DNA of 37,547 nucleotides from a virus (IMGVR_UViG_2724679539_000004); one strand, 5' to 3'. Positions 33,228 to 37,547 are shown, counted from the stretch's first letter. Numbers and translations are program-made. The notes: a model not told the origin generated them from the letters alone.

Positions 33228-33384
33228 AGCTTCAGCCCCTTGTATCCGTTAAATGATTCGGCAACAATCATCACCCACCACGCGCGTAATCTCACCCCTG
33301 CGCCATTCTCCCGCCACGGCGACAACAAAAAGCAGTAACCCCCTCCGCACGCACATGCGACCATGCCGCACAGGGAGGGAACAG

Positions 33385-34494
33385 ATGACCGACACCACCA
33401 TGCAATTGCTCAGTCAGGGCACAGACCCCGTGAAAATGCCGGATTTTGATATTCTCGCGGAGGGTAAAACGCTGTCAGGCGTGGCAGAGCGCCTGATGAG
33501 TCTGTCACTGACCGACAACCGGGGATTTGAAGCGGACCAGCTCACCATCACGCTGGATGATGCGGATGGTCAGTTGCAGCTACCGCCACGGGGCGCGCGC
33601 CTGACGGTTCTCATTGGCTGGAAAGGAGAACCGCTGACAGAAAAAGGCACTTACATTGTTGATGAAATCGCTCACGAAGGACCGCCGGACAGGCTGACTG
33701 TTTCAGCCAGAAGCGCAGATTTTCGGGATGAATTTAACGTTAAACGTGAGGTGTCCTGGCATGATGTGACCGTTGAGCGTGTGGTATCCGCCATCGCTCA
33801 TCGGTACGGTCTGAAACCGCAAATCAGCGAAATGCTGATGGATATCGAAATCGACCACGCCGACCAGACCGAAGAAAGCGACATGTCCTTTCTTACGCGC
33901 ATGGCGGAAATGCTGGGCGCAATCACCACGGTAAAAAGCGGTAATCTGTTATTCATCATGCCCGGCGGTGGCGTGAACGCACAGGGCCAGCCGTTGCCAT
34001 CGTTCGCCATCACACGCAGCAGCGGCGATCGCCATCAGTTCCGCATTGCGGACCGCGAAGCGTATACGGGGGTACGCGCCTACTGGCTTGATCTTAATTA
34101 CGGGAAAAAGAAAAAAGTCAGCGTGAAACGCCGCAAACCGCCAAAACCCAAAAAGGAGAAAAGCAGCAGCCGTGAAGGTGATTATATGGAAGGCGCGGAA
34201 GGCAATGTGTTTGTGTTACGCAAGACCTATCAGAACGAACAGGCAGCAAGACGCGCAGCGGCGGCAAAGTGGCAGCAACTACAACGCGGAGCCGCATCAT
34301 TCTCCATCACGCTGGCGCGTGGACGTGCAGAACTCTACCCCGAAATGCATGGTACGGTAACAGGATTTAAAAGCGAGATTGATAATCAGGACTGGATCAT
34401 TGCAAAAGCCGAGCACACCATTGATAACAGTGGCTTTACCACGCAGCTTGAGCTTGAGGCAAAAATCCCGGAATGGATAGCGGAAACAGAGTGA
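33385..34494 (+). CDS. D: Tail protein D (late control gene D family)
   Basis: 369 aa from ATG 33385 (SD gggaggga); position upstream of ogr. Confidence 0.8.
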   Translation: MTDTTMQLLSQGTDPVKMPDFDILAEGKTLSGVAERLMSLSLTDNRGFEADQLTITLDDADGQLQLPPRGARLTVLIGWKGEPLTEKGTYIVDEIAHEGPPDRLTVSARSADFRDEFNVKREVSWHDVTVERVVSAIAHRYGLKPQISEMLMDIEIDHADQTEESDMSFLTRMAEMLGAITTVKSGNLLFIMPGGGVNAQGQPLPSFAITRSSGDRHQFRIADREAYTGVRAYWLDLNYGKKKKVSVKRRKPPKPKKEKSSSREGDYMEGAEGNVFVLRKTYQNEQAARRAAAAKWQQLQRGAASFSITLARGRAELYPEMHGTVTGFKSEIDNQDWIIAKAEHTIDNSGFTTQLELEAKIPEWIAETE

Positions 34495-34536: not shown

Positions 34537-34797
34537 ATGTTCCGTTGTCCGCTTTGTGGCGCATCTGCCCGTATCCGCACCAGTCGTCCGGAAAATGATT
34601 CAAACACCGTGCGGCAAAAGTATTACCAGTGTAACAACCTGGAATGCGGCGTATGCTTCTCAACACTGGAAGCTTTCCATAAATTCACATCGAAACACGC
34701 CTCCGGCGTTCACTCATCAGAAGGTATCCCGTGGCATGAGCTGCCAGCTTCACACAGGGGAAACAATCAGATGAGTTTGCCTTTATCTCAGAATTAA
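34537..34797 (+). CDS. ogr: Ogr/Delta-type zinc-finger late transcription activator
   Basis: MFRCPLCGASARIRTSR...YYQCNNLECGVCF is a C4 zinc finger like P2 Ogr; 86 aa (P2 Ogr 72 aa). Confidence 0.8.
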   Translation: MFRCPLCGASARIRTSRPENDSNTVRQKYYQCNNLECGVCFSTLEAFHKFTSKHASGVHSSEGIPWHELPASHRGNNQMSLPLSQN

Positions 34798-34987
34798 CAG
34801 GCAGAATTGCCGGAGTAACAAAAAAGCGATAGATTACGCGCGGGTGCCTTTCGGCTGATGGTCGGAGGGAATACCCGAAGGCCAGATGTGGAAAGGCCCC
34901 GGAAAACATCTCTGTTTAACCGAGGCCCTAACCGCATTACCTTAGCAAGTGATAGGTTAGCGCCTCCCTGAAAAAGGAGCAAGCGCT

Positions 34988-35128
34988 ATGTCGCAAAAAT
35001 CGCTTACGGCCATCACGTTCTGCGTGACGGCAATCCTCATCATCTGGATGCTGCACGGTTCGCTGTGCGAAATACGGATGAGCTTCTGGGGAGCGGAGTT
35101 TGCGGCGTTCTTACAGTGTAAGCAGTAA
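34988..35128 (+). CDS. hok: Hok/Gef-family type I toxin
   Basis: 46 aa; N-terminal TM helix then SLCEIR...EFAAF signature of Hok family; SD aaggag; not in ORF track (<60 aa). Confidence 0.65.
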   Translation: MSQKSLTAITFCVTAILIIWMLHGSLCEIRMSFWGAEFAAFLQCKQ

Positions 35129-35204
35129 GGAAACCGCGACGGGGGAGCAATCCCCCGTCAATCGGTTGCCAGGGTAAGGTCGATAAGGCACCCTATCTCA
35201 CAGA

Positions 35205-35239
35205 CATGAACAACAAACCCGCAGCGTAAAAACTGCGGG
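35205..35239 (+). terminator. Rho-independent terminator after hok locus
   Basis: CCCGCAG-loop-CTGCGGG followed by TTTTCTTTTT. Confidence 0.6.
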
Positions 35240-35296
35240 TTTTCTTTTTGGTGCCCTCACAAATGAGGGCACCATACATAAGCAATAGGCATAACA

Positions 35297-35334
35297 GATC
35301 GATGCAATAAATCCGATCGATAAAAACGATCGAT
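35297..35334. promoter_or_regulatory. Cluster of three CGATCGAT (GATC) motifs upstream of com
   Basis: GATC at 35297, 35316, 35329 within 38 bp; overlaps putative -35/-10 (TATCAT at 35339). Confidence 0.5.
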
Positions 35335-35378
35335 TTGTTATCATATCGGCAGCAGTAACCACACAAGAGGTGCCGCAA

Positions 35379-35576
35379 ATGACGCAAAATGTACGATGCA
35401 AAAATTGCAACAAACTACTTGCCCGCGCCTCATTTCACTACATTGAAATAAAATGTCCGCGCTGCAAAACACTTAACCAGATAACGAGAGCCATCGAGCA
35501 CCCCACACACATGAGGAGTTATGACCGTGGGGATCGCAATCCAGCACCAACCAGCACATACACCGGAACACACTAA
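35379..35576 (+). CDS. com: Com-like zinc-finger translational activator
   Basis: 65 aa; VRCKNCNKLL...HYIEIKCPRCKTLN matches phage Mu Com zinc finger as recalled; overlaps start of downstream methyltransferase. Confidence 0.7.
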   Translation: MTQNVRCKNCNKLLARASFHYIEIKCPRCKTLNQITRAIEHPTHMRSYDRGDRNPAPTSTYTGTH

Positions 35577-36312
35577 GGTTTATCAGACTGACAATGCCAC
35601 GCTCTGTCGTGGGAATGCGCTGGAAATATTGCCGCTGATTGAGCCAGAAAGCATTGATGCCTTAATCACTGACCCACCTTACAGTTCGGGTGCGACACAC
35701 AAGGCCGGACGCACCAACCAGGGCAGCCATGCAAAATATCTGAACGGCGAGAACCTTCACCGCTTTGATGGGTTCGCGGGTGAAAACATGGACGCCCGTT
35801 CGTGGGCTTACTGGACACAATTATGGATGGCACAGGCACACCGCGCAGTCAGGCCGGGCGGTTATGCCCTGGTATTTACTGACTGGCGACAACTACCAGC
35901 TTTAACCGATGCGTTTCAGGCCAGTGGCTTTACATGGCGCGGCATCATTGCGTGGAACAAAGGGAGGGGGTCACGAACACCACATACCGGGTATTTCCGG
36001 CATCAGTGCGAATACATCGTCTGGGGCAGCAAAGGCCATTTAGATAAATCGCCTTCGGGACCGTTCGACGGCTGCATGACGTTCCCGGTTATCCCGTCAA
36101 AGAAAATGCACCCAACCGGAAAACCAGAAGAACTAATGGCGGAACTGGTCAGGACTGTGAATAGTGGCGGAACAGTCCTTGATCCTTTTATGGGGTCAGG
36201 GACAACGGGTGTGGCTGCACTGAAAGCAGGACGCAAATTTATTGGTATAGAAACCAGTGATCATTATTTTGATGTAGCAACACAACGGCTCAAAACGGCG
36301 ATCGAACCATAA
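35521..36312 (+). CDS. DNA methyltransferase, beta-class (DPPY before FxGSGTT)
   Basis: 263 aa; motif IV DPPYSS upstream of motif I FMGSGTTGVAA; CcrM/HinfI-like order, N6-adenine or N4-cytosine. Confidence 0.8.
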   Translation: MTVGIAIQHQPAHTPEHTKVYQTDNATLCRGNALEILPLIEPESIDALITDPPYSSGATHKAGRTNQGSHAKYLNGENLHRFDGFAGENMDARSWAYWTQLWMAQAHRAVRPGGYALVFTDWRQLPALTDAFQASGFTWRGIIAWNKGRGSRTPHTGYFRHQCEYIVWGSKGHLDKSPSGPFDGCMTFPVIPSKKMHPTGKPEELMAELVRTVNSGGTVLDPFMGSGTTGVAALKAGRKFIGIETSDHYFDVATQRLKTAIEP

Positions 36313-36332
36313 GACAAAGCCCGCAATGTTGC
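36311..36332 (+). terminator. Hairpin terminator after methyltransferase
   Basis: AAGCCCGCAA-tg-TTGCGGGCTT. Confidence 0.45.
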
Positions 36333-36350
36333 GGGCTTACTCTACCTCTC

Positions 36351-36539: not shown

Positions 36540-37547
36540 GTGATGATGCAACCTATTTCCGGTACTCCACCACGCCCACCGGATATCAACCAAAATCAAC
36601 CAGCCGGGCCAGGCGAACAACCTTTATCAACACAGCAACGCACTGTACTGGAACGTCTGATAACCCGCCTGACTGCATTAACGAAGCAGCAAAGTGCTGA
36701 AGTATGGGCTGCTGTTAAGCATGATCTTGGTATGAAAAGTGATACTCCGTTGCTCTCACGTCATTTTCCCGCTGCGGAAGTTAATCTTAACCAGCGCCTG
36801 CTGCGTGCTCAGCAAACTCACGTGACCCGCCAATTGTTGTCACAACTGAGTGGGCTGCTCAGTCAGGGGAATAATCGCCAGGCTGTCAGCGATTTCATTC
36901 GCCAGCAATACGGTCAAACCGCGCTGAATCAGCTAACTCCTGAACAGTTAAAAAATGTCCTTACGTTGCTCCAACAAGGCAAACTGGCAATCCCGCAACC
37001 ACAGCAACGCACACCAACTGCTCGCCCGTTGTTACCTGCTGAGCATAATACGTTAAAGCAACTGGTGACTAAACTTGCTGCCGCGACCGGGGAGCCAAGT
37101 AAACAGATCTGGCAATCGATGCTGGAGCTTTCGGGGGTGAAGAACGGTGAACTTATCCCGGCGAAACAATTTACCCATCTTGTGACATGGCTACAGGCTC
37201 GTCAGACTTTGAGTTTGCAAAGTGCACCAACGTTGGAAACGTTGCAAATGGCACTGAAGCAGCCGCTGGAACGGGCTGAACTCACTGAACTGCAACATTA
37301 TGCACAGCAAACCTGGAATGTCCTGCCGCAAATGGCGCTCACGTCATCCCAGGTTCTTGATCTGCTTAATCACGTGTTTTTAAAACGTGCGGAGCGAGAA
37401 AGTGGATTTATCGATCCGCGTAATATTCAGCCATTATTTACCCCTTTCCCTCCACTGATGGATACGTTTAAATCCTTCACCGGGAGTACCGGGTTGGTTT
37501 TAATGGCCTTCTTAATTGTGCTCCTGCTTATCTGGTTGGTGATTTAA
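36540..37547 (+). CDS. flk: Host flagellar regulator Flk-like, C-terminal membrane anchor
   Basis: 335 aa; Gln/Pro-rich; PLLSRHFPAAE and C-terminal LVLMAFLIVLLLIWLVI anchor resemble enterobacterial Flk as recalled. Confidence 0.7.
   Translation: MMMQPISGTPPRPPDINQNQPAGPGEQPLSTQQRTVLERLITRLTALTKQQSAEVWAAVKHDLGMKSDTPLLSRHFPAAEVNLNQRLLRAQQTHVTRQLLSQLSGLLSQGNNRQAVSDFIRQQYGQTALNQLTPEQLKNVLTLLQQGKLAIPQPQQRTPTARPLLPAEHNTLKQLVTKLAAATGEPSKQIWQSMLELSGVKNGELIPAKQFTHLVTWLQARQTLSLQSAPTLETLQMALKQPLERAELTELQHYAQQTWNVLPQMALTSSQVLDLLNHVFLKRAERESGFIDPRNIQPLFTPFPPLMDTFKSFTGSTGLVLMAFLIVLLLIWLVI

Follow-up and report, generated by a model that had tools for sequence, protein, structure and literature searches.

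A com cassette homologous to the phage Mu com-mom control module precedes a beta-class DNA methyltransferase in a P2-like Escherichia coli prophage

The 37,547-nucleotide viral stretch IMGVR_UViG_2724679539_000004 (hereafter the window, meaning the whole stretch analyzed, with positions counted from its first letter) represents the right-hand portion of an Escherichia coli prophage that is P2-like (Xuanwuvirus/P88-like) and integrated beside the host gene flk. Near its right end, a gene for a zinc-finger protein of the Com family overlaps the gene for a DNA methyltransferase, downstream of three closely spaced GATC sites. In our judgment this is probably a mobile com cassette homologous to the com-mom control module of phage Mu, with a beta-class amino-methyltransferase as its effector, carried as cargo at the prophage's right end and subject to a proposed combination of Dam/OxyR and Com control. 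The initial annotation had proposed a Mu mom-like regulatory architecture, and the relationship goes beyond analogy to homology: Com is 60% identical to Mu Com, the GATC sites have the 18- and 13-bp spacing of Mu, and both the Com-target RNA and the stem that hides the effector start align with their Mu counterparts.

The com gene (35379-35576, plus strand) is preceded by a Shine-Dalgarno sequence, AGAGGTG, at 35366-35372 and encodes a 65-residue C4 zinc-finger protein. Its product matches the Pfam family Zn_ribbon_Com (PF10122) with an E value of 9.5e-12 (44.6 bits, for a cut-off of 22.9) and PHROG 13819, "gpCom control of modification," with a value of 2e-17. The identity to Mu Com extends across 42 amino acids; both CxxC pairs are kept, and the four zinc-binding cysteines (C7, C10, C27, and C30) align with those of the Mu protein. 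The gene runs 56 nucleotides into that of the methyltransferase, and the overlap of a Com-like zinc-finger open reading frame with the 5' end of a DPPY-type methyltransferase gene, as first described, is confirmed together with both family assignments.

The methyltransferase gene (35521-36312, plus strand) encodes a 263-residue enzyme assigned to the beta class of N6/N4 DNA methyltransferases from its match to Pfam PF01555 (N6_N4_Mtase; 3.4e-33, 115.9 bits) and from its motif order, with DPPY (motif IV, residues 51-54) before FMGSG, an FxGxG sequence (motif I, residues 223-227). A DPPY motif IV suggests N6-adenine methylation, and judged by this motif the enzyme probably makes N6-methyladenine (m6A). 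Its structural relatives in the PDB that match over the full length are limited to a Helicobacter pylori M1.HpyAVI-like "DpnA" and an N4C enzyme, both of low identity, and 5917 methyltransferase homologues carry generic names only. The 352-residue methyltransferase of phage 1720a-02, which we take to be the M.EcoGII-like enzyme of that phage, is 22-32% identical to the window enzyme in the catalytic and S-adenosylmethionine (AdoMet) blocks only; the target-recognition region is unalignable, so that the specificity of M.EcoGII is not transferable. No characterized close relative was found in the PDB, among the 5917 homologues, or in comparisons with the enzymes of phages Smp131 and 1720a-02. 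Assignment of the enzyme as either non-specific or GATC-specific was rejected, given the low-identity structures, the generic names, and a similarity to M.EcoGII-like enzymes confined to motifs. Likewise, identity with the Hia5/Hin1523 type was discarded, as those enzymes are alpha-class and Dam-related and the window enzyme is beta-class; the effectors of Haemophilus and Moraxella cluster on their own and match PF02086 weakly.

Control of this enzyme by Com is suggested by two predicted RNA elements at the junction of the genes. The first is a Com-binding hairpin (35487-35502, plus strand) whose loop carries the motif CCAUCGAG, of the form CC-N3-GAG, at 35491-35498, and which abuts and overlaps the 5' arm of the second element, a translation-inhibition stem-loop. 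For Mu Com the published target is GAAUGCCUGCGAGCAUCCCACGGAG, and recognition is reported to involve CC(N)2-3GAG presented in the loop of a hairpin that adjoins a translation-inhibition structure (PMC6483171). The window sequence GCCAUCGAGCACCCCAC aligns with the Mu Com-binding RNA GCCUGCGAGCAUCCCAC, and the loop motif with Mu CCUGCGAG. Across a survey sample of 160 Com-homologue loci (labeled L0xx or L1xx), which defines the comparisons among loci made here, the hairpin motif is found in 89 of the 93 unique com-to-effector junctions, compared with 1.7% of background windows. Its stem covaries across the family (AUGC/GCAU, ACGC/GCGU, GCAC/GUGC, and GAGC/GCUC, among others), with paired fractions of 0.74, 0.65, and 0.71 compared with 0.58, 0.41, and 0.50 in shuffled sequences.

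The predicted inhibitory stem-loop (35501-35532, plus strand) is formed by pairing of CCCCAC at 35501-35506 with GUGGGG at 35527-35532, with an inner helix between 35510-35514 and 35519-35523, and has a calculated minimum free energy of -17.5 kcal/mol (z -2.7). It encloses the Shine-Dalgarno sequence of the methyltransferase gene, GAGGAG (35513-35518), the GGAG portion of which (35515-35518) lies in the loop, as well as the annotated AUG start at 35521. A second candidate start, an in-frame GUG at 35527, six bases downstream, sits in the 3' arm of the stem. As the effector of a diverged relative, L118, has no AUG and a GTG (GUG) in the stem as its sole start, the GUG at 35527 is likely the ancestral start, with the AUG at 35521 a second candidate. 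A consensus fold computed for ten junctions of enterobacterial and Mu type retains the hairpin together with six pairs of the stem, and one covarying pair, the outer pair of the stem, shows a compensatory change from C-G to U-A. No curated Rfam family covers either element, the only matches in Rfam being below threshold, including one to a neighboring sok. In the modeled RNA the region thus appears to hold the features of a Mu mom-type translational element, a CC(N)2-3GAG hairpin and a start-sequestering stem with a GUG in its 3' arm.

The survey also indicates that the effector downstream of these elements is interchangeable. Alpha-class Dam-like methylases (PF02086) occupy this position in 48 loci, beta-class N6/N4 methylases, including the window enzyme (PF01555), in 43, Mom (PF25680) in 38, C5-cytosine methylases (PF00145) in 12, and Hia5-like enzymes, with a weak PF02086 match, in 8. 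The Mu com control unit behaves in this sample as a portable part, with Com and the RNA hairpin placed before five kinds of DNA-modifying enzyme. Enterobacterial cassettes for Mom, C5 methylases, and beta-class methylases have CCCCAC...GUGGGGA, and with it the stem, in common and diverge immediately beyond it, a pattern which argues that the effector has been exchanged at the start codon. A 307-residue protein without a Pfam match, which may be an uncharacterized Com-controlled effector, lies downstream of a Com homologue and a CC-N2-GAG hairpin at L035 (2604-3527, Acinetobacter sp. ANC 4558).

Transcriptional control is suggested by the region upstream of com, which holds three GATCGAT repeats on the plus strand. 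The first (35297-35303, Dam site at 35297-35300) is followed at 18 bp by the second (35315-35321, Dam site at 35315-35318) and this at 13 bp by the third (35328-35331 for the Dam site, within 35328-35334). The second overlaps the -35 hexamer of a predicted sigma-70 promoter and the third lies in its spacer. An earlier claim of three CGATCGAT motifs within 38 bp overlapping a putative promoter stands as to the three GATCGAT repeats, two of which are on the promoter, but the first, preceded by A, reads AGATCGAT, and only two are CGATCGAT. In the whole window GATCGAT occurs four times, with three of these in the triad and 3.6 expected on both strands.

The predicted promoter (35317-35344, plus strand) consists of a -35 element, TCGATA, at 35317-35322, a 16-bp spacer, and an extended -10 element, TGtTATCAT, at 35336-35344, and no second sigma-70-like site was detected between 34800 and 36600. 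Conservation of its TGnTATCAT element extends to L118 and to a second diverged relative, L105, and transcription likely starts near 35351. No match to the Ogr-type late element of P2, TGT-N12-ACA (consensus according to PMC3931495), occurs in 35200-35345, and tblastn searches of the window with Mu C and Mor gave nothing below an E value of 0.7 and thus no homologue of either.

With the consensus of Toledano, ATAGnTnnnAnCTAT-N7-ATAGnTnnnAnCTAT, scored over 20 positions as quoted in PMC2909390, a predicted OxyR tetramer site that includes the GATC triad (35294-35330, no strand assigned) scores 15 of 20, as does an alternative register at 35285-35321, and no site on either strand of the window scores higher. 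The same scoring gives 13 at the proven OxyR site of Mu and 14 at that of agn43. Among com loci, values of 13-15 are restricted to the enterobacterial ones, and most non-enteric loci reach 8-12. The site would extend from about -57 to -21 relative to the predicted transcription start. Pairs or triads of GATC are limited to enterobacterial cassettes, with none in Acinetobacter, Neisseria, Methylophaga, or other loci, and a 13-bp GATC pair is common to Mu mom, agn43, and the enterobacterial com operons with Mom or a C5 methylase. In L105, which has another upstream context with homology beginning about 15 bp 5' of the first GATC, and in L118, whose Com is 71% identical to that of the window, the triad is kept with unchanged spacing and the bases between and around the sites have changed. 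Approximately 33 of 35 near-identical copies retain all three sites. The arrangement has the appearance of a Dam/OxyR-type promoter, in which several GATC sites fall within an OxyR-consensus site at a promoter.

A role for these repeats without OxyR is nevertheless conceivable, if unlikely. Dam methylation could alter the binding of RNA polymerase directly, or SeqA could bind the hemimethylated cluster and tie expression to replication; at the IS10 transposase promoter, effects of Dam and SeqA link expression to replication in this way. The second GATC touches the -35 element and the third is in the spacer of the predicted core promoter, and the spacings of 13 and 31 bp would put sites on roughly one face of the helix. 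What this explanation leaves aside is that the conserved unit is not GATC but GATCGAT/CGATCG, in which ATCG and CGAT resemble the OxyR quarter-sites ATAG and CTAT in a site scoring 15 of 20, and that the spacing and flanks recur at two proven OxyR sites. Since the extra bases produce these likenesses, the OxyR model accounts for a repeat that extends beyond GATC.

The additional bases could also mean that the repeats are the enzyme's own target, for instance ATCGAT or TCGA, or that they serve a controller as its operator, with autoregulation like that by the C-proteins of restriction-modification systems. The repeats do exceed GATC and contain ATCGAT and TCGA palindromes. However, the non-enteric beta-methyltransferase cassettes L008, L011, L043, and L050 have neither the repeats nor any GATC/OxyR element, and the same repeat pair precedes com cassettes with Mom or a C5 methylase, so that the repeats go with com rather than with the window enzyme. 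The own-target explanation was rejected on the latter ground and appears very improbable.

The mechanism that we propose begins with a bicistronic com-methyltransferase mRNA that would start near 35351 from the extended -10 sigma-70 promoter. OxyR would bind its site over the -35 element and spacer and repress transcription if the three Dam sites were unmethylated, and Dam methylation would exclude OxyR, as it does at Mu mom and agn43. The com gene would be translated from its own Shine-Dalgarno sequence while that of the methyltransferase, together with both candidate starts, is locked in the stem-loop. Binding of Com to the CC-N3-GAG hairpin abutting the stem would then open the stem and license translation of the methyltransferase. 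The enzyme, probably by forming m6A, would modify DNA, for which the most plausible role is to shield phage DNA from restriction.

Several observations weigh against this reading. Three bare GATC sites would fall within 31 bp somewhere in the window with a probability of about 0.19 under random placement, and the promoter scan gave one match where 2.2 are expected in shuffled sequences. Clustering of GATC and the promoter scan were each rejected as evidence in their own right; as neither is significant alone, the weight of the argument comes from the seven-base repeats, the exact Mu spacing, the OxyR score, and conservation in diverged homologues. In L005 and L115-117, moreover, a 31-bp deletion fuses the three repeats into one (AATCAAT in L115-117), removing the predicted -35 element and OxyR site and leaving the -10 element, com, and the methyltransferase gene intact, and L089 is without the second site. 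The triad is thus dispensable for persistence of the cassette.

These variants speak for a view of the GATC/OxyR region as a relic of a Mu-like source phage without regulatory function in a P2-like context, in which case expression would depend on the -10 element and Com only or the cassette would be silent. The triad-less variants keep TGTTATCAT, com, and the methyltransferase gene and persist in several genomes, and the C-binding part of the Mu mom promoter has already been lost. A relic would not be expected, however, to keep three GATC sites and their spacing in L105 and L118 despite changes in the surrounding bases, or to be intact in nearly all of the near-identical copies, and this view seems to us rather improbable.

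On the translational side, the Com hairpin of the window has an A.A mismatch, and RNAfold favors a shifted hairpin of 3 bp, which makes the local geometry less certain than in Mu; one hairpin mismatch is typical of the clade to which the window cassette belongs. Further, the com frame spans the entire inhibitory stem-loop, with its stop at 35576, and ribosomes translating com would cross the stem, so that translational coupling could replace or supplement Com. An explanation along these lines, with ribosomes melting the stem and Com binding uninvolved, or with Com acting instead as a DNA-binding transcription factor, has a low probability in our estimate. The DNA-binding alternative draws on PGAP, which labels the products in identical copies of the cassette as "Com family DNA-binding transcriptional regulator" and "DNA-methyltransferase." This name (window 35379-35576; RefSeq WP_001353016.1) conflicts with the published role of Com, which binds RNA and activates translation (PMC6483171). 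Coupling, for its part, is at odds with the occurrence of the covarying hairpin motif even in loci whose com gene stops short of the effector start or hardly runs past it. A better annotation would name Com as an RNA-binding translational activator and place the likely methyltransferase start at the GUG within the stem.

A final difficulty for Dam/OxyR and Com control concerns lysogens. Given a prophage that is fully methylated by Dam and the lack of a C-type activator, the model predicts expression in the lysogen, which would be odd if the enzyme were toxic like Mom or M.EcoGII. Bistable methyltransferase expression could result from the predicted placement of an OxyR/Dam site over a stand-alone promoter. 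There is some chance, albeit a small one, that in lysogens the C-independent promoter with its agn43-like Dam/OxyR site acts as a heritable ON/OFF epigenetic switch that makes a prophage orphan methyltransferase phase-variable. If so, this enzyme, whose gene approximately 3% of complete E. coli genomes contain, would split clonal populations into two methylome states, and additional methylation of the GATCGAT sites by the enzyme would lock its own ON state.

The genomic setting supports the description of the cassette as cargo. In the window, gpD (33253-34494) is followed by ogr (34537-34797), the gene of a hok-family toxin (34988-35128), the com cassette, and host flk (36540-37547, the window end). 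The shared sequence of the relatives P88, PhiR44_2, and P884B11 ends at about 35203-35250, ahead of the cassette, and in phage 500465-2 the slot between hok and flk that corresponds to window 35250-36340 (L165 1390-2620) holds different cargo, a 110-residue zinc-ribbon protein followed by a 297-residue VasI/TagO-like protein (PF11319, 2.6e-25). The com cassette is therefore exchangeable cargo, and the slot between hok and flk is a hot spot of cargo exchange. Copies identical over 1.2 kb occur in E. coli chromosomes, and at least 80% of the 1.2 kb is present in 171 of 5426 complete genomes (about 3%). In phage Chuche, which is 96% identical, the labels of the products read "DNA methyltransferase" for the enzyme and "gpCom control of modification" for Com. 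A cassette of E. coli type, its Com 92% identical to that of the window, also appears in L005, a contig labeled Vagococcus sp. WN89Y (NZ_JBQPOM010000071.1), where the Gram-positive assignment likely reflects a contaminated or mis-binned contig.

The boundaries of the cassette have features of their own. Between ogr and the cassette lies a hok/sok-type toxin-antitoxin locus (34842-35128) with a 46-residue hok-family toxin open reading frame at 34988-35128 (Pfam HOK_GEF, 4.1e-07) and an Rfam sok match at 34842-35001 of 44.8 bits, short of the 59 set as gathering score; many Shiga toxin (Stx)-converting phages have a segment with about 82% identity to this block. The interval between the hok terminator and the cassette holds, close to the terminator, a perfect 10-bp inverted repeat without a T-run, GGTGCCCTCA-caaa-TGAGGGCACC (35251-35274), which is present or partly altered in most relatives and replaced in L001, L084, and L092. 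At the right end, directly 3' of the methyltransferase stop, a GC-rich hairpin (36317-36338, no strand assigned) that is kept in L105 and L118 may be a terminator, with an uncertain role on the plus strand, as the scan saw a T-run on the minus strand only. Beyond it, flk has a weak Pfam match to phage Mu GemA (E value 5.5e-4, 21.3 bits for a cut-off of 27), which is probably a low-complexity or coiled-coil resemblance.

The coupling of Com to a conventional methyltransferase is not new, having been described for phage B3 and for FluMu and Pnm1 (PMC3299994) as well as for the P2-like phage KS5 (PMC3091744). With the core idea already in the literature, the present analysis is a refinement rather than a discovery, and what appears to vary is that the Dam/OxyR element lies directly on a C-independent promoter, in a mildly different layout. 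A literature search of incomplete coverage, which does not prove absence, found no paper on the E. coli cassette or on OxyR/Dam control of a P2-like com promoter. As a practical matter, the module flags prophage methyltransferases that are probably tightly gated, as possible broad-acting anti-restriction enzymes or reagents of practical use.

Comparison with known systems illustrates how these parts have been combined elsewhere. With regard to the enzyme, M.EcoGII and M.EcoGI are likewise prophage-borne beta-class DPPY enzymes; they are non-specific adenine methyltransferases, silent in lysogens, and phage 1720a-02 is named as carrying a very similar enzyme (PMC5778455). With regard to pairing with Com, KS5 of Burkholderia, in which the translational regulator Com (gp21) overlaps an N4/N6 methylase (gp20) (PMC3091744), and Smp131 of Stenotrophomonas, with the same pair and an enzyme 46% identical to that of the window, are also P2-like phages in which Com overlaps a PF01555 methyltransferase, but they carry the pair in another genome slot. 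In Pseudomonas phage B3, FluMu, Pnm1, and Hia5, com is followed by a conventional adenine methyltransferase in the mom position, and the 5' end of hin1523 is reported to carry Com-binding elements (PMC3299994). These systems resemble the window in having a Com homologue upstream of a conventional m6A methyltransferase and differ in that their enzymes are alpha-class and Dam-related (PF02086), those of the Hia5/Hin1523 type being non-specific, and in that their host elements are Mu-like; no GATC triad was seen in the Haemophilus loci.

With regard to the promoter, the OxyR/Dam behavior of agn43, gtr, and mom has been described (PMC2909390). At agn43 (flu), GATC sites are spaced 19 and 13 bp, in atcGATCgtttatatcGATCgataag, with flanks near-identical to those of several com promoters. 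The gtr promoter of P22 has 13-bp GATC pairs within one OxyR half-site, overlapping the promoter, and Dam methylation blocks OxyR there (PMC2909390). Unlike the com cassette, agn43 and gtr, both phase-variation switches, control surface proteins or O-antigen modification and are without Com or a translational layer.

Mu com-mom has the same three GATC sites at 18 and 13 bp (positions 860, 878, and 891 of L003, with similar flanks), a region that coincides with the experimentally defined OxyR/Dam region of the mom promoter, Pmom. It also has a CC-N3-GAG Com hairpin adjoining a stem that holds a GUG start and a com gene that overlaps the effector. The module of the window differs from it in several respects. 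The effector is a beta-class AdoMet methyltransferase in place of Mom, and the host element is P2-like, whereas Mu is transposable. The window is also without the C-activator segment of about 27 bp, which in the late promoter Pmom is located between the GATC region and the -10 element, and without a C/Mor gene: the Mu sequence ccccaataaccacactcaaccc...tttttt, comprising the C-activator site and a T-run (Pmom sequence also in PMC4461284), has no counterpart, and the third GATC is 51 nucleotides from the com ATG compared with 78 in Mu. Finally, the triad, at about -54 to -20, sits on the core promoter, whereas that of Mu is upstream of it. The proposal in the initial annotation that Mu control logic acts on a conventional methyltransferase thus finds support in homologous elements, and the arrangement departs from Mu in the missing activator and in the position of the triad. 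With the C segment, C/Mor, and an Ogr element absent and the predicted OxyR site placed over a stand-alone extended -10 promoter, the layout resembles Mu less than it does the repressing OxyR(BC) site of P22 gtr.

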